Of a stretch of 64,000 nucleotides of DNA, positions 4,986-63,266 are shown one piece after another. How positions within the stretch are numbered: the first letter of the stretch is position 1; each line of letters begins with the position of its first letter. Below the pieces are notes generated by a model. The model had not been told where the DNA came from. It saw only the letters and a list, made by a program, of their open reading frames with translations, and did not search any database. The stretch comes from Eledone cirrhosa (lineage: Eukaryota): assembly GCA_964016885.1 (NCBI GenBank), contig CAXHJY010000343.1, positions 1 to 64,000 of the forward strand, in the 5' to 3' direction. The position numbers were made by a program, and so were the translations under genes.

Positions 4986-5119
4986 GTAGATAAATCTACC
5001 AAGAGTTTACGGTAGTGTCCAATCCGTATGAAGAACTCAATGTATTCCGGATATCATGGAAAGAAGAGATGTAATGAAAATCCACTTTCGGTGAAAGATA
5101 AACGGTATACAGAGTCAAG

Positions 5120-5532
5120 ATAAAATATTAAACAAATAATGAACAAACAATTCCTTATATTAAACAAAAAAAGTTCACTATTTAACGATCGTTTCTAGGG
5201 CATATATGTGTTATAATTGGTATGCATATTTAACAGATCTATGTACAAAATTATACAAAATTATACAAATTATCAAGATTAAATATACATACCTAACTCA
5301 TATATACGCCGTCTTCAGAAATAATCTTTATTTCTGAAGACGGCGTATATATGAGTTAGGTATGTATATTTAATCTTGATAATTTGTATAATTTTGTATA
5401 ATTTTGTACATAGATCTGTTAAATATGCATACCAATTATAACACATATATGCCCTAGAAACGATCGTTAAATAGTGAACTTTTTTTGTTTAATATAAGGA
5501 ATTGTTTGTTCATTATTTGTTTAATATTTTAT
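5120..5532. repeat. Perfect inverted repeat, 205-bp arms, 3-nt loop (TCT 5325-5327)
   Basis: 5120-5324 is the reverse complement of 5328-5532 (gtcttcagaaataa TCT ttatttctgaagac). Confidence 0.95.
5329..5473 (+). ncRNA. Candidate type-I hammerhead ribozyme with very long stem II (mirror copy on - strand 5179-5323)
   Basis: TATTT-CTGAAGA-[C GGCGTATAT...ATATATGCC CTA]-GAAA-CGATCG-TT-AAATA. Palindromic stem III; the base of stem II is imperfect. Confidence 0.6.
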
Positions 5533-5551
5533 ATATATATATATATAAATA

Positions 5552-5591
<40 letters not shown>

Positions 5592-5710
5592 TTAATATAT
5601 ATATATATATATATATATTAATATATATATATATATATATATATTAATATATATATATTAATATATATATATATATATATATATTAATATTAATATATAT
5701 ATATATATAT

Positions 5711-5941
5711 ATTGGAATAAATGCTCTGAAATAGCGATATATATGTGAATATAGACATAGAATATTCGAAAATATTCTGTATGTTTATAATAAACATTTT
5801 GAAGACCTAATCGCTATAGAATAGAATACGTCACGTATTACAATTAGATTCTCGATAAAAGCAAGGGAAGTAATCTACGCGTTTCATTCTTGTTAGAAAT
5901 CATCAGGACTACATATCCAGTGCTTTTATCGAGAATGACAC
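5711..5941 (-). mobile_element. Inverted partial copy of the 310-bp HHR unit (HHR at 5870-5912)
   Basis: Reverse complement of part of the array unit, directly abutting it; resembles a PLE-type inverted 5' end. Confidence 0.92.
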
Positions 5942-7851
5942 ATGTTTATTATAAACATACAGAATATTTTCGAATATTCTATGTCTATATTCACATATAT
6001 ATCGCTATTTCAGAGCATTTATTCCAATTTCTAATTTCTGCCGGACCGGCAACCGCTCTTTCAAACCAGTTCCTGTACACAGCTAAGTATTCTATAAGTC
6101 TCTAGCTGTGTCATTCTCGATAAAAGCACTGGATATGTAGTCCTGATGATTTCTAACAAGAATGAAACGCGTAGATTACTTCCCTTGCTTTTATCGAGAA
6201 TCTAATTGTAATACGTGACGTATTCTATTCTATAGCGATTAGGTCTTCAAAATGTTTATTATAAACATACAGAATATTTTCGAATATTCTATGTCTATAT
6301 TCACATATATATCGCTATTTCAGAGCATTTATTTCAATTTCTAATTTCTGCCGGACCGGCAACCGCTCTTTCAAACCAGTTCCTGTACACAGCTAAGTAT
6401 TCTATAAGTCTCTAGCTGTGTCATTCTCGATAAAAGCACTGGATATGTAGTCCTGATGATTTCTAACAAGAATGAAACGCGTAGATTACTTCCCTTGCTT
6501 TTATCGAGAATCTAATTGTAATACGTGACGTATTCTATTCTATAGCGATTAGGTCTTCAAAATGTTTATTATAAACATACAGAATATTTTCGAATATTCT
6601 ATGTCTATATTCACATATATATCGCTATTTCAGAGCATTTATTCCAATTTCTAATTTCTGCCGGACCGGCAACCGCTCTTTCAAACCAGTTCCTGTACAC
6701 AGCTAAGTATTCTATAAGTCTCTAGCTGTGTTATTCTCGATAAAAGCACTGGATATGTAGTCCTGATGATTTCTAACAAGAATGAAACGCGTAGATTACT
6801 TCCCTTGCTTTTATCGAGAATCTAATTGTAATACGTGACGTATTCTATTCTATAGCGATTAGGTCTTCAAAATGTTTATTATAAACATACAGAATATTTT
6901 CGAATATTCTATGTCTATATTCACATATATATCGCTATTTCAGAGCATTTATTCCAATTTCTAATTTCTGCCGGACCGGCAACCGCTCTTTCAAACCAGT
7001 TCCTGTACACAGCTAAGTATTCTATAAGTCTCTAGCTGTGTCATTCTCGATAAAAGCACTGGATATGTAGTCCTGATGATTTCTAACAAGAATGAAACGC
7101 GTAGATTACTTCCCTTGCTTTTATCGAGAATCTAATTGTAATACGTGACGTATTCTATTCTATAGCGATTAGGTCTTCAAAATGTTTATTATAAACATAC
7201 AGAATATTTTCGAATATTCTATGTCTATATTCACATATATATCGCTATTTCAGAGCATTTATTCCAATTTCTAATTTCTGCCGGACCGGCAACCGCTCTT
7301 TCAAACCAGTTCCTGTACACAGCTAAGTATTCTATAAGTCTCTAGCTGTGTCATTCTCGATAAAAGCACTGGATATGTAGTCCTGATGATTTCTAACAAG
7401 AATGAAACGCGTAGATTACTTCCCTTGCTTTTATCGAGAATCTAATTGTAATACGTGACGTATTCTATTCTATAGCGATTAGGTCTTCAAAATGTTTATT
7501 ATAAACATACAGAATATTTTCGAATATTCTATGTCTATATTCACATATATATCGCTATTTCAGAGCATTTATTCCAATTTCTAGTTTCTGCCGGACCGGC
7601 AACCGCTCTTTCAAACCAGTTCCTGTACACAGCTAAGTATTCTATAAGTCTCTAGCTGTGTCATTCTCGATAAAAGCACTGGATATGTAGTCCTGATGAT
7701 TTCTAACAAGAATGAAACGCGTAGATTACTTCCCTTGCTTTTATCGAGAATCTAATTGTAATACGTGACGTATTCTATTCTATAGCGATTAGGTCTTCAA
7801 AATGTTTATTATAAACATACAGAATATTTTCGAATATTCTATGTCTATATT

Positions 7852-7860
<9 letters not shown>
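5942..7860 (+). mobile_element. Non-LTR retrozyme-like tandem array: 6 full + 1 partial 310-bp units, one hammerhead each
   Basis: Units start at 5942, 6252, 6562, 6872, 7182, 7492, 7802. Only 3 substitutions seen (6334, 6732, 7584). Flanked by (TA)n. Confidence 0.9.
6137..6179 (+). ncRNA. Minimal type-I hammerhead ribozyme (also 6447-6489, 6757-6799, 7067-7109, 7377-7419, 7687-7729)
   Basis: GTAGTC-CTGATGA-TTTCT AACA AGAAT-GAAA-CGCG-TA^GATTAC. Palindromic ACGCGT stem III; predicted cleavage after 6173. Confidence 0.88.
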
Positions 7861-7915
<55 letters not shown>

Positions 7916-7929
7916 TATATGGATGGATG

Positions 7930-8268
7930 GAGGCACATGGCTTAGTGGTTAGAGCATTGGCCTTGCAATCAAAAGGTTGTGAGTTCAATTCTCAGACCGG
8001 GTGATGTGTTGTTTCCTTGAGCAAGACACTTTATTTCACATTGCTCGAGTTTACTCAGCTGTAGAAATGAGATGATAGGGACTGGGGTCCCTATCATTCC
8101 ACTGTAAAGTGGTCGTGGAGGTGCCACGGCAAAAAAGCACCCAGCACTCACTGTAAATGAGGTTGGTGTTAGGAAGGGCATCCAGCTGTAGAAATCAAGC
8201 CAGAATCAGTTCCCGTCCCACCCTTGCAAGCAGGGAAAAGTGGACGTAAAATGAGATGATGATGATGA
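7930..8268 (+). mobile_element. tRNA-derived CORE-type SINE with RTE-derived 3' tail
   Basis: A box TGGCTTAGTGG, B box GAGTTCAATTC, CORE-like CCTTGAGCAAGACACTT, tail shared with the RTE 3' UTR, ends in (GAT)n. Confidence 0.85.
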
Positions 8269-18146: not shown

Positions 18147-20271
18147 TCAAGGCGGTTGATTTATCGTAGGAGTGTCAATCCAGTTACAGATCAGATGCGA
18201 TTTCAGATGAGGACAGCATCTGAAGATCTCAGTCTTAGAGTTAAGGCAAGCGGAAGTGTCTCTCAAGTTTAGCAAAATCCTATACTTTTCTGTGGTACAC
18301 AAAGAACAATTCTTTGTGCCCCTTTGGTACTCCCTCGAATGGTCTAATATAGACCAATCAATAGAGTACGGGATATTACTATCCTTGAGATCCCATACCT
18401 TACTTGCGAGGGCCGTTGATGTTCGTTTATCTGAGTGTTTAAAAGAAGCGACATGTGAGTAAAATCTGGTTTTAAACCTGTCCTGGGTCATACCGACATA
18501 TCGCTCGCTTCTGGCTGGCTGGTTGTTGATAACTGGCGTTATTTTAGCCTCATAAACGACAGATTTTGTGTTACATTTACCCTGCAATGGGCATTCATCC
18601 GGCTTCCTGCAACTGCATCCTGGATTTATCCTCGTACGGTTTGAACTGGTGATTTTGGATTTCATGGATGGACAACAAGAGTAGCTGATCTTAACTACAT
18701 TCCTATTAAAAATCTTATAATATCTATGAATAGGAGGAAAATGTTTGTCTAATAGTTCAAGGAATTTCCTTCCTACATTAGTTTTGACATTTAGAGAGAA
18801 GGGGGGTGTGAACCAAATAATCTTCCTTTTCCTGTTATTATGGTTAGTTTTAGGGGGGGGGGAGTAGGTAAATAAGAAATATTTTCTGTAAAACCGCTGT
18901 TCTTAAGGGCTTTATTATAATACGGGGCGGCTTTATTAAAAATGTCTATAGACGAAGATAAAGTAGAAATCCTACGGCTAATGTTAGGAATAAGATTATT
19001 AAAAACTATAGGGGGATGGCAAGACTCTTTGTGTATATACCTAAGATTATCATTAGGTTTATGGTAGGGTTTAAAAGAGGCAGTAAGTAGATCAAGATTA
19101 ATATCAAGAAAGTTAGCATTAGTAAGGTTCGTATCTATAGTAATTTTAAGGTTAAGATTAGCAAAGGTACTAATTAAATCTTTACGGAATTTATCAAGAT
19201 TATGGCCATTGGTGGTATGAGAAACTGCTAATCCGTCATCACGGTATAAACCGATATTATGGGACGGAAATTTCTCTTTGAGTGTGTGGAGAAGGAATAA
19301 TCCTACTAAGTCGCACACATCCGCACTGTCATAAGAACCCATTGCAACATCGAAAGAGTTTTCAGGGTTTGACTTTTTAACCCAAATATTATCATTAGTA
19401 AAAAGTAAAGTTTTTCTGGCATGAAAGATAATGTCCTCTTCTAATTTGGAGATATTAATGAAGGGTCTTGCAAAATCTAAGGCTTTAGTTAATAAGGAAA
19501 CGGTAATAGAAGGGTAAAAATCGACAATATCAAATTGCGTAAATCTACACTTATTTTTACCTTGTATATTATTGAACCAAGAGATAACAGAGGAAGTATT
19601 TAGCCACTGTGAAAGGACAGTGTTAGTTCTAATTTGGAGAATTATTTTTCTTAAGATTTTCTTACTAGCAAGGCCAACCTCGGATTTAGCCGGGTTAATC
19701 AGTCTACAACTAGGTCGATTAGTAAAGTCCAATTTATGGTCTTTAAGGGTAATATATGCTTTACGCTTAGCTAAGCTTTCAATCCGGTTATCTATTTGTA
19801 AAGAACTGGCTAGTTCTTTAGCTTCTTTATTGATAGTATTGTAGCTATTATTATTAGTTAATTGATATTTATTGGTAATACTATTAGTTAAAAGTTGGTT
19901 ATACAAATTACTATTAACTTCAAAGAGGTTTTTGGTTTTATCAGAAAGAACGAAAGTGTTTGTAGAATTTCTAAAATTAGAGATATCGTGAGAAAGTTTA
20001 GTTTGAAAATTATTATTGTACTTACGAAATTTGATATCACTAATTAGATTAACGAGGTCTAATTCGAAGTTGGCCATGTCTTTAATTCTAGGTGGATATT
20101 TACGGGATTTAATGTCAAAATTATCTTTAGTATCAGTCCATCGTAAACCATTGCCTTCCATCTCATTCTTTTAACGACTTGCTCGATTTTATCAATGAGG
20201 ATTTTGGTGTATGTTGTGTTGGAAGGAGTGGGTATGTTTTTGATAGAATAATCCAAATCATAAAGGTCCAT
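18147..20271 (-). pseudogene. PLE polyprotein (RT + GIY-YIG endonuclease) broken by two frameshifts
   Basis: YSIKNIPTPS..KRMRWKA, QFDIVDFYPSI, AMGSYDSADVCDL, LYRDDG, then CSC..CPLQGKC..VVY..YVG..R..H..CSLC..E..LN..CCPH. Shifts near 20140 and at the G run 18853-18862. Confidence 0.92.
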
Positions 20272-20733
20272 GGTGTATGTTGGTTAAATTCCTGAAAACT
20301 GTAGAGTGCTCAACTAATCGGGCTGGAAAGTGCCAATCGTATATGTAATATCGAATATGCTGCGATCAATCCCGGTTGGAGCTGTATAAATGAAGTAATT
20401 CCATCGGAAATTGTGTATGTGTACGTGTATGTGTGTATATATATATATATATTTATATGTATATATGTGTATATATATATGTGAATATGTATGTATGTAT
20501 ATATGTATATGTATGTGTATGTATGTATATGTTGCGTGTGTTTTTATTTATTTTTATGTATGTGTGGGTTTGTGTGTGGGTGTGTGTGTGTGTATATATG
20601 TGTGTGTGTGTTTGTATTTGGTTGTGCGTTCTTTTGATATATACGTATTTGCATGTGTATAATTGTTTAGCTATGTATGTATATGTGTGTTTACGTATTT
20701 ATATGTGTGTGCGTTTATATTTTTATATTTTTG

Positions 20734-22392: not shown

Positions 22393-22396
<4 letters not shown>

Positions 22397-25097: not shown

Positions 25098-27203
25098 TAG
25101 TAAAATATTTAACAAACACACCATTAAATTTTCGTATTCTACATCCTCCAATATTTCCAACATCATTTCTAAACACAACAACAAAATATTAAATACTAAA
25201 TCTCTTCCTTCCAATATTGAATCTCATAATAACAATAATAGTACTCCTGACGTCATTGTAAACCCTAGGCTAACTTCTGTAAACCCAAATGCAACGTCAA
25301 ACACAACTTCGCTAAATGTTCATAATCCAACTCTAAATCAAGAAACTATTATTCCTATTATTCCTATCGCAAACAACTTCTCCAATCCAATTCCTTCTAT
25401 AGATAACACTAGATCACTCATTAATAATCTCTCTAATTGCAACTGCCGCATTAAAAATAAATGTCCTCTCAACAACCATTGCCTCGATAAAAACTTAATT
25501 TATGAATGTAAAATTATAACTAGCACCAACTCCTTCACCTATTTTGGCTCCACTTCCACCTCTTTTAAAGCTCGTCTCTATAATCATCATTCATCTTTCA
25601 AATACAAACTTAAAAGAACTAACACTGCTCTCTCAGAACTCATATGGTCCTTAAAAGACAAAAACATTAAATATAACATCTTTTGGAAAAAGATTTCTTC
25701 TGCATCCTCGTACTTGAACAGTTCTCTATCTAAAATCTGTAATCTCTGCCTAAATGAAAAATTTACCATTATCTCTAACCTAGAATCCATAATAAATAGA
25801 CGCTCGGATTTGTTTTCCATCTGCCTGCATAAATTCCATAGAACTTTTCACAAAGTATACAGTTAATATTCAATTCTTTATCAATTTAGAATCTTTTCTC
25901 AAAGGCACATATACATACACCTCTTTAAAATATACCCATCTACCTTACTTTAAAGGGCATTATACACTCTATAGTACTCGTTTACTCATTTACCTCATCC
26001 TATCTTCTCGTAAAACAATAACATTTGTTTTTGACATTTTGAATATTCATCCGCAATCATTATTATTTTTTTTCCCTCTATCATAAATCTTTTTAATCTC
26101 AATTTCATCCTTAATTTATTATTATATATTTTTTTTAATATATACTCATATATTCTTTAAAATATACCCATCTACCTTACTTTAAAGGGCATTATACACT
26201 CTATAATACCCGTTTACTCATCACCCTCATTATATCTCCTCGTAAAACAATAACATTTGTTTTTGACATTTTGAGTATTCATCCGCAATCATTATTATTT
26301 TTTCTCTCTATCATAAATCTTTTTAATCTCAATTTCATCCTTAATTTATTATTATTTTTTTCTCCCCATCAACGAACTCATTATTAATACATATGAATTC
26401 AATATAAAAACTTTAACTTCACATTATTTTTCTCAAATCCTATACATAAACTTTTTCTCTTTGCTATTTTTAAAATTCCTACATTTCTCCTTTTGAATAT
26501 TCACCCACAATTATTATTTTTTTTTCTCTCTATCTCCATACATAATCTCCCTTCGTTATTTTTTTCTCTCTATCTCCATACATAATTTCCCTTCGTTAAT
26601 TTTCAAATTCCTTTAATTTATACATTATCTTCCAACGGTTCCCAACCTCTCTATATTAAAACATTATATCTTTTTCTCAGTTATAAAAACTATCTCTTTC
26701 TCTCTATCACCCATCTCTCCCTTTCCACCTTCACTCTCATCTCCTCCCCTTTTTTTCATCCTTTCCACCCCCAACCCTCCCTAAATATAATATATTTTTT
26801 CCTCGCACATATCCTCCCTTCGTTAATTTTCAAAATTTTTAATTTATACAGTATCTTCCAACGGTTTTCAACCCCTCTATATAAAATATATCTCCTCTCT
26901 GTTATAAAAACTATCTCTTTCTCTCTATCACCCATCTCTCCCTCTCATCTCCTTCCCTTTTCATCCTTTTCTCTCCCCCCCTCTCTAAATAAAATATTTT
27001 TCCCAATATCACACATCAATCTAAAACCACTTTTCATATGTTGATTTAAAACTGCACTATCAACAAGTGTTTTTTTAGCCTTCATATCATGTTCTCCTGT
27101 TTTATCTGATGAAAACACAAATATTATTGTTTGATGATGTTTGTTTTTGAAATGCGCATAATAAAATATATTGAACTCCTTTAACCATCTTTTGATCTTA
27201 TAT
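25098..27203 (+). mobile_element. 5'-truncated PLE (second family): GIY-YIG end plus long 3' region with internal duplications
   Basis: 25098-25866 encodes [47 protein letters not shown]; ~230-bp direct repeat at ~25924 and ~26155. Confidence 0.9.
27100..27166 (+). ncRNA. Hammerhead ribozyme at PLE 3' end
   Basis: TTTTAT-CTGATGA-stem II-GAAA-TGCGCA-TA^ATAAAA. Confidence 0.85.
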
Positions 27204-61910: not shown

Positions 61911-62429
61911 AAATTGAGGTTGGTAATGGCACATGGAATATATAAGAGACAGAATACTTTTTTGTGAAAAAACATAATTTTATAAGGTAAGGAAATAATA
62001 AAGGGTATAAAAAATGACCGGTTTCGATGGGTCTGCAAAAGCACACACATATATCTATATATATATATGCGCACACAGAATTCACCACTGTCGGTTGCGG
62101 GGCCCAATCTACATGAAGAACTCAATGTGATCAGAATGACTTGTATTTTAATTTCACTGCCCCAACTTCTTATATTATGGAAAAAATATATGTGTCTGTA
62201 TGTATATATATATATATATATTTGAAGGCCATTTCTCTGTGTGTGGGTGTATGTATGTGTATATGTGTGTGTGTGTGTATGTGTGTGCATGTGGATGTAT
62301 GTATTGTGTGTGCGTGTGTGTGTGTATGTGTGTATATATATGTGTGGGTGTGTTTATGTTTGTATGTGTGTATGTATATATATATGTGTGTGTGTGTGTA
62401 TATATATAGGTGTGTGTATGTATGTGTGG

Positions 62430-62481
<52 letters not shown>

Positions 62482-62538
62482 ATATATATATATGTGTGTA
62501 TGTGTGTGTGTATCTGGATGTATGTGTATGTATATATA

Positions 62539-62589
<51 letters not shown>

Positions 62590-63215
62590 ATGTGTATATA
62601 TGTGTGTGTGTGTATGTGTGTATGTATATGTATGTGTGTGTGTATGTATGTGTGTATATGTATATATATGTATATGTATATGTATGTATGTGTGGATGAA
62701 GGTATGTGTGTATATATAGGTGTAAGTGCACTAAATCCCTTTCTATCACGCTCCACTCTCCTACCCATCACAGGAAGATATGTGTATGTATATTGCTTCC
62801 ACCCCCTCACTGACCAGCAGCTGGCCAGTTGGTGATTGCTAAATCTGACCTTTATAAAATAACCCACACCCCAAATAACTTCTCATTCACTACCAGAAAG
62901 GGACACAGCAGTCAACCTGTTGTTGCTACCTAGATGAAAACTGCTATGAAATCCCACAATGAATTTTATACTTGAATTTTCAAGTCTCAAATTTTAACTC
63001 TTCGTATTATTAATTTTTCTTAATATTAATCAACATTTGAAAAGATGGCTTTTGCAGACCCATCGAAACCGGTCATTTTTTATACCCTTTATTATTCCCT
63101 TACCTTATAAAATTATGTTTTTTCACAAAAAAGTATTCTGTCTCTTATATATTCCATGTGCCATTACCAACCTCAATTTTCTCTATAACCTTCGTTTTGT
63201 GTAGAAAATTACACT

Positions 63216-63220
<5 letters not shown>
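61906..63220 (+). mobile_element. pLTR-like insert with ~135-bp inverted ends and candidate U3-A8 HHR (63032-63079)
   Basis: 61906-62042 inverted at 63048-63184; AACAT-TTGAAAA-GATGG..CCATC-GAAA-CCGG-TC^ATTTT. Confidence 0.7.

Positions 63221-63266
<46 letters not shown>

Follow-up and report, generated by a model that had tools for sequence, protein, structure and literature searches.

A young, dispersed 310-nt hammerhead repeat with a Penelope-type insertion footprint in the genome of Eledone cirrhosa

The tandem array at positions 5711–7862 of the window (the whole 64,000-nt stretch of Eledone cirrhosa DNA that was analysed) is probably one insertion of a dispersed 310-nt repeat that is young, does not code for protein and carries a hammerhead predicted to depend on dimers. 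On this reading, which we hold with moderate confidence, the repeat was copied from one RNA circle by the enzyme of a Penelope-like element (PLE) that primed from both cut (TA)n ends. Judged from its sequence, the element would belong to the animal non-LTR retrozymes, and its insertions have a Penelope-type footprint. It has the sequence features of these retrozymes, and its RNA level is predicted. The initial annotation had proposed a retrozyme, and what we found agrees with it: tandem units of 310 bp and 34% GC that each contain a type I hammerhead, the absence of ORFs and LTRs, dispersal through the genome, and PLEs in the same genome.

Results

Structure of the insertion in the window

The array covers 5942–7862 on the plus strand with a period of 310, 6.2 copies, 99% matches and no indels. 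Three SNPs were found among the 310-bp units, each in a single unit (6334, 6732 and 7584), and the longest open frame in the array is only 59 aa. The units are thus nearly identical and non-coding, as first described. We numbered the unit from 6174, the first base after the predicted cut, which is position 1.

The array is the short-end arm (S arm) of a two-armed insertion. It runs on the plus strand from unit position 79 to 310, through five full units and then from 1 to 139, and its final ∼10 nt blend into the TA target. The tail-bearing arm (T arm) lies inverted at 5711–5942 on the minus strand. Its 232 nt are identical to unit positions 244–310 followed by 1–165, and its 3′ end is flush in (TA)n. 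The two arms (S 1,921 nt, T 232 nt) meet head to head at 5942, where they overlap by 1 nt. Repeat calls place the (TA)n target tracts at 5530–5713 on the left and 7855–7920 on the right. An inverted copy of ∼230 bp with a minus-strand hammerhead, and a (TA)n setting, had been reported for this array, and both were recovered.

Every unit contains two sites at which the arms end. The S site is an AU tract able to pair with a (TA)n target end at unit ∼124–139 (for example 6297–6312, plus strand). The T site is predicted to be single-stranded and lies at unit 157–172 with its mode at 165 (for example 6330–6345, plus strand). The 26–40 nt that separate the two sites are the tail, which is carried by the second (inverted) arm in the window insertion. 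To the right of the array is a tRNA-derived SINE-like repeat (7932–8250), also present at 22395 and 61654 of the window; an Rfam tRNA match of 28.5 bits lies inside it at 7938–7995.

The hammerhead of the 310-nt unit

Six plus-strand hammerhead cores (CUGAUGA) occur at 6143+310n, with GUA sites that end at 6173+310n. The first type I hammerhead, found by inspection and folding, occupies 6137–6179 on the plus strand with a predicted cut after 6173. Its helix I has 6 bp (6137–6142 with 6174–6179) and its core is at 6143–6149. An extension of helix I, a 16-bp stem past an internal loop, closes each hammerhead (6113–6204, plus strand, for the first). Helix II has 4 bp resting on a U.U pair (10.1–11.1), and helix III has 2 bp, palindromic, formed by the 6-nt palindrome ACGCGU. 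The T arm carries a minus-strand hammerhead at 5870–5912, with its core at 5906 and a predicted cut between 5876 and 5875. There are five intervals between the six predicted GUA sites, which bears out the earlier count of five 310-nt monomers per read-through transcript; by the spacing of the cut sites, the predicted monomer or circle (unit positions 1–310) is 6174–6483 on the plus strand.

When two adjacent ribozymes were folded as a dimer, a double hammerhead was obtained with helix III pair probabilities of 0.89–0.98. In the fold of a lone circle, helix II had a probability of ∼0.15 and helix III was absent, with a folding program that cannot model the 2-nt loop. Cleavage is predicted from these folds to be dimer-dependent.

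In Rfam, Hammerhead_HH9 matched all seven copies at 19.2 bits (E 0.49), below the gathering threshold of 52. Hammerhead_1, the family named in the initial annotation, was absent at E up to 1, and no hammerhead family reached threshold in this search. The same annotation had described one minimal type I hammerhead per unit. Type I is supported by the core and the helices, and "minimal" has to be replaced by the canonical metazoan form. The minimal hammerheads of PLE terminal repeats, according to the accessible text of Cervera and de la Pena 2014 (PMC4209133), have a helix II of 7–8 bp, a helix I of 4–5 bp, an extra nucleotide before helix II and a G10.1–C11.1 pair. In contrast, the 310-nt unit has a helix I of 6 bp plus its extension, a helix II of 4 bp and U.U at 10.1–11.1. 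By its sequence, the hammerhead of the unit is of the canonical metazoan type of that source.

Variants that are fixed across entire insertions spare the catalytic core and keep the pairing of helices I and II. Single-unit variants, unlike the fixed ones, do fall in the catalytic core. The sparing of the core by fixed variants suggests that a unit needs a working ribozyme to found new insertions. In a transcript that spans a whole insertion, the two arms would pair into a long hairpin, and the first ribozyme may be limited by it.

Size and age of the family

The 20-nt core motif has 15,050 exact copies in the 3.0-Gb genome, and the reversed control has 0. Some haplotypes alter the motif, and 15,050 is thus a lower bound. 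The monomer fold has a z of −4.6 relative to 100 dinucleotide shuffles; because of this value and the core count against its control, the array and its hammerhead are not a chance occurrence. Exact end motifs were found 1,191 times for S and 1,043 times for T genome-wide (controls 0), which sets a minimum of 1,191 insertions. Our estimate, based on 128 loci within C1 0–222 Mb, is 1,500–2,000 insertions of ∼9 units each. A genome BLAST for dispersed arrays had been suggested as a check, and these counts confirm a dispersed family.

Single-unit substitutions amount to 0.38 per kb (0.04% divergence), sequencing errors included. With so little divergence, the family must be very young. The DNA that it has very recently added comes to at least 4.7 Mb, or 0.16% of the genome. 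A first genome search had yielded ∼22 loci, a sample skewed to rare variants, and the statistics were redone on positional samples of C1. In that biased sample the variant 161T lay beside the junction, an apparent coincidence that was dropped.

Two older sister retrozyme families have units of 319 and 314 nt that are 63–64% identical to the 310-nt unit, with 1,141 and 2,520 first-look candidates, respectively (loci L041:5318–5810 and L080–L109; L129:4381–4730 and L287–L316). They keep the sequence around both ends and the layout, and their helices II and III are replaced. One of them has a U3-A8 core variant. Sister-family copies are mostly short, frequently of fewer than 2 units. One older short copy (G000:C28:43347199–43360012) is present four times within a 4.09-kb tandem duplication.

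Ends, targets and junctions of the insertions

We sampled 136 regions of C1: 44 contained both exact ends, 76 contained one end, and 16 were chosen from core positions. These held 137 clusters. S and T ends together were found in 110, and 2 more had a T end with a short or rearranged S side; 18 were one-armed or complex, and 7 met an edge or gap. Complete two-armed insertions were therefore S+T in 110/112, with no S+S and no T+T. Once the 44 pre-paired regions were left out, the ratio was 67/68. Outward pairs of exact ends between 0 and 222 Mb of C1 were S+T in 54/54; 46 S and 28 T exact ends there had no exact partner. The window array, with its two arms and S+T ends, has the structure of the family and is a single insertion, as first proposed.

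The outer S end falls within unit ∼124–139, and the outer T end within 157–172, exactly at 165 in 83/110. An inverted head-to-head second arm is present in 112 of the 130 clusters with both edges visible. The 49 central junctions have a 1–6 nt overlap (28), no overlap (4) or mostly a short filler (the rest). The position of the junction within the unit is random and the outer ends are fixed. The initial annotation had predicted dispersed arrays with variable start points, which holds for the inner junction only and fails for the outer ends.

Median arm lengths are 972 nt for S and 1,176 nt for T. S exceeds T in 53/110 insertions, by more than one unit in 35. The two lengths are weakly correlated (rho 0.22), and a length bias is absent (p 0.35). 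The inverted 5′ copy that had been taken as a PLE signature does belong to a Penelope footprint, but it is a second arm of equal average length rather than a 5′ copy.

Target site duplications (TSDs) were read at impure targets and measure 15 bp (L135), 14 bp (L126) and ∼12 bp by eye (L128). They are unreadable in pure TA targets, the window insertion included, and automatic calling was informative at one locus. The fixed unequal ends, the inverted copy and the microsatellite target are, as a genomic pattern, the Penelope tail footprint. No LTR structure and no ORF joined to the 310-nt unit was found in the loci examined.

The template that was copied

Haplotypes differ from one insertion to the next. 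There are 18 haplotypes in 44 loci, with a chance match of 0.14. The same haplotype was found on both arms in 33/33 informative loci, and in 15/17 of a second set. Across 110 loci we counted 135 locus-by-variant cases fixed on both arms and 122 single-unit cases, and 7 loci were mosaic. A haplotype fixed over all units, with no ordered heterogeneity, points to a template of one monomer.

The 5′ ends of 98 arms have an even distribution over the unit (p 0.50), and 2/98 lie at the predicted cleavage site compared with 3.2 expected. Since 5′ ends are not in excess where the ribozyme would cut, the template appears to have been endless. Together with one haplotype per insertion, the even spread points to an endless single-monomer template and not to a cut linear RNA. 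The rolling-circle copying of the initial annotation is in this way supported indirectly as regards a one-monomer template, and the RNA circle itself is predicted.

Contigs of four sequencing runs of unspecified kind were also inspected. Three runs have one closed 340-nt contig (310+30), a product that low-cover tandem DNA gives as well. The fourth run has many inversion joints and may be the source sample. None of these contigs was counted as evidence for the element.

A-to-G changes make up 8/24 distinct fixed substitutions versus 5/41 single-unit substitutions (p ∼0.06, run with 25). Of the eight fixed changes, seven lie in A-U pairs where G.U is tolerated. Selection on structure suffices for this pattern, and ADAR editing is no more than a lead. 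A-to-G at unit 20, 259, 276 and 295 recurs on several haplotype backgrounds. Unit 276 is a UAG within a helix, and L321 acquires 276G partway along its T arm. The recurrent variants are a lead that may reflect either RNA editing or tolerated wobble pairs. At L137, L139, L154, L152 and L159, next to where ligation is predicted, an extra 1 nt directly follows unit position 2 and is fixed across the whole insertion. Two of the three fixed indels are independent insertions of this kind, on two haplotype backgrounds. These events are too few for a ligation scar at position 2 to be called.

Relation between the two arms

At L334, two units of one haplotype (X) are followed, from the outer end inwards, by a second haplotype (Y) on both arms. 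A pattern search found the Y-X adjacency exactly twice genome-wide, both times in L334. The haplotype switch most likely arose during that insertion and would have been recorded twice. Since the mirrored switch is found nowhere else, the arms were made together or one was copied from the other. L149 and L353 each have a single variant mirrored in the outermost full unit of both arms. At these three mirrored loci, the S arm is never longer than the T arm.

Two loci are hard to reconcile with a single molecule being copied strictly at the same time into both arms: at L321 a variant begins partway on the T arm and is present throughout the S arm, and at L335 a variant is confined to the T arm. 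At L140, L141 and L049, variants repeat inside one arm, with a period of seven units at L141, which suggests growth of the array after insertion. The repeats within arms of L141 and L140 could also be a sign of a multimeric template. Most loci would be covered by joint synthesis of both arms on a template that they share, if the template is sometimes switched or one start is delayed, and we consider this the probable explanation.

An alternative is that only the T arm was reverse-transcribed from the circle, the S arm being a self-primed fold-back DNA copy that has an AU-rich end and anneals through it to the other end of the target. Self-priming has been proposed for Penelope inverted repeats in the available part of PMC3846280. 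A fold-back copy accounts for the strict S+T rule, for homology at S alone and for haplotype identity, it agrees with S≤T at all three mirrored loci, and some junctions have hairpin-like fillers. However, a copy cannot exceed its template, and S is the longer arm in 53/110 insertions including that in the window (1,921 versus 232 nt), with no length bias overall (p 0.35). The S arms of L321 and L335 are not copies of their T arms, and about half of the loci would require later expansion or a central deletion. We regard a fold-back origin as unlikely. Another possible template is a linear multimer that was transcribed from an array already in the genome, left uncleaved and primed twice, with circles rare or irrelevant and the hammerhead a passenger. 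Mirrored variants and free arm lengths follow directly from such a molecule, which would also agree with hammerhead cleavage being dispensable in vitro (PMC11167929, as far as its text is available). Yet it leaves unexplained why many haplotypes are each fixed across all units, no start or cut site has an accumulation of 5′ ends, and the order seen at L334 has no source locus in the assembly, although that source could be absent from the assembly. A linear multimer therefore seems improbable to us as well.

Two further readings dispense with a self-contained retrozyme, and we give either of them very little credence. Expansion within arms, visible at L140 and L141, is what would be expected of a DNA-level satellite that spreads by unequal crossing-over or extrachromosomal circular DNA and has a hammerhead by chance. 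Such a satellite is already largely refuted by the marks of a retroelement: the 3′ ends are fixed and differ from each other, TA is targeted, TSDs are present, the arms stand head to head and variation spares the core. The unit might otherwise be a truncated terminal repeat of an autonomous PLE, and in L253 a sister-family copy does abut a Neptune-type endonuclease fragment in the same orientation. Against this, units of the 310-nt family follow one another head to tail, and none of the loci examined has coding sequence between them, and the sister families (314–319 nt) share the same closed unit. The arrangement in L253:2250–2800, where the sister arm directly follows the endonuclease fragment, may come from a template switch or a deletion and is a possible lead to a partner.

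Autonomous Penelope-like elements in the same genome

Young PLE families in this genome have intact frames of 813 aa and 777 aa with RT and GIY-YIG domains. Family B, which we take to be Hydra-like by its motifs, is represented in the window by a truncated, inverted end at 4986–5532, and its 813-aa frame is in L114. It has 1,573 candidates, the top 40 at 100% (very young). Its hammerhead-like core has a helix II of ∼115 nt, and its tail, at 133 nt, is unusually long (query ends 205 and 338). A two-armed piece of family D lies at 61957–63230 of the window (other loci L177–L206 and L227–L256; 777-aa frame). Family D, probably Neptune-like by its zinc-finger linker, has 20,907 first-look candidates and a U3-A8 hammerhead core, and its short ends often bear added (TC)n runs, as if the enzyme had stuttered at the priming site. 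Both families, with one copy each in the window, pair one short end with one tail end like the 310-nt element.

Neither was retained as the partner of the 310-nt element. Family B has no sequence likeness to the 310-nt unit and has the 133-nt tail. Family D appeared to have an AU tract and end motif in common with the unit, but its true ends lie elsewhere. No autonomous element with a terminal repeat related to the unit was found in ∼1.15 Mb of loci or in families B and D. A partner search by chimeric query, variant motif and sensitive BLAST of the loci returned sister retrozymes only. The terminal repeat of family B nevertheless has 25 nt (window 5019–5043) that match the 3′ region of the unrelated family D (L177–L203) at 88% identity in the opposite orientation. 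The 64-kb window is dense in PLE coding fragments and hammerhead-like motifs, and more of them lie at 18207–20274 (minus), 25387–25848 (plus), 27106, 39673, 48522 and 48009 (minus).

Discussion

The favoured model can be given as a series of steps. A tandem transcript would fold into double hammerheads and be cut to 310-nt monomers, which would be ligated as circles; a lone circle unable to form helix III would be stable. The GIY-YIG endonuclease would nick (TA)n with a stagger, as we infer from TSDs of 12–15 bp at three loci and from Penelope biochemistry. One target end would prime at the T site with ∼2 nt of homology, a step whose genomic pattern is observed and whose mechanism is presumed. 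The other end would prime at the S site through pairing of its TA with the AU tract, so that each insertion has one start of either kind. Both polymerases would circle one monomer for a median of 3–4 turns, probably concurrently and sometimes switching template. As the junctions show, the products of the two arms are joined head to head, at positions that are random and with a 0–6 nt overlap or a short filler.

A more specific version is put forward tentatively and is rather doubtful. In it, the PLE enzymes would be a committed pair on one ribozyme-made circle, one starting at the tail site and the other at the AU site 30 nt on. Both would roll and switch template together, and the insertion would be a mirrored tape of the RNAs used, in which the recurrent A-to-G changes may be RNA edits written into DNA.

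Animal non-LTR retrozymes, as described in the accessible text of Cervera and de la Pena 2020 (PMC7229834), consist of tandem units of 150–450 bp with low GC (below 45–50%), a type I hammerhead in each and no ORF or LTR, and their RNA circles and cleavage have been demonstrated. The same text proposes that Penelope enzymes copy these circles. It also describes the axolotl HHR_Amex2, whose helix II starts from a U.U pair and whose cleavage is best in the dimer. The 310-nt element resembles these retrozymes in unit size, low GC and type I hammerhead, and HHR_Amex2 in its U.U pair. Unlike them, it is known from genome sequence only. It has a two-armed structure, an end rule and a haplotype test, whereas the available part of that source describes none of the three.

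According to the accessible part of Li, Clavereau and Pollet 2026 (bioRxiv 10.64898/2026.07.22.740005), retrozymes are non-autonomous Penelope derivatives. The Xenopus retrozymes of that preprint have terminal-repeat homology to autonomous elements, whereas none was found for the 310-nt element. Local amplification is favoured there for Xenopus tandems, whereas the length of the 310-nt tandems mostly appears to have been made at insertion.

Insertions of endonuclease-positive PLEs, in the available text of Craig et al. 2021 (PMC8557442) and Arkhipova et al. 2013 (PMC3846280), contain partial tandems, an inverted 5′-truncated copy and a 30–40-bp tail, usually at one end. They prefer (TA)n and have TSDs of ∼8–10 bp, and non-autonomous multicopy derivatives exist in Chlamydomonas. 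The 310-nt insertions share the inverted copy, the tail at one end, the (TA)n target and the TSDs. In contrast to those PLEs, the 310-nt element has no ORF, both of its arms are multi-unit and of similar length, and its one-tail rule has been counted (110/112).

The anole Poseidon enzyme, in the part of Frangieh et al. 2024 (PMC11167929) that is accessible, nicks and extends both strands of AT-rich DNA in vitro. It is predicted to be a dimer, and synthesis begins at two neighbouring internal sites of the RNA that the tail separates. Its products are like the 310-nt insertions in that both target strands are extended from internal starts a tail apart. However, the 310-nt insertions use one site of each kind, and their S site has homology to the target, whereas no difference in start site between the strands was observed in vitro. 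Uncleaved RNA was the main Poseidon substrate in vitro and cleavage was dispensable. By analogy, the uncleaved substrate and the lack of a strand difference count against the favoured model. In Xenopus, 8/9 predicted retrozyme dimers did not cleave in vitro, which likewise counts, by analogy, against the ribozyme step of that model.

In openly readable papers and the main texts of preprints, we found no description of the 310-nt family and no haplotype test of retrozyme copying. What is added to current knowledge is a counted end rule, an even spread of 5′ ends and a mirrored, genome-unique template switch. In the available texts, the reverse transcription of retrozyme circles by PLEs, and the origin of the tandem, inverted and tailed structure of PLEs, have so far only been proposed. 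If the committed-pair version is true, a single mechanism would account for three features of PLEs, namely their tandems, their inverted copies and the tail on one side, and retrozyme circles would be genuine transposition templates. The 310-nt non-coding template offers a simple substrate for an in vitro assay. With ∼1,500–2,000 near-identical insertions that carry natural barcodes, the copying step of this family becomes readable from the genome.
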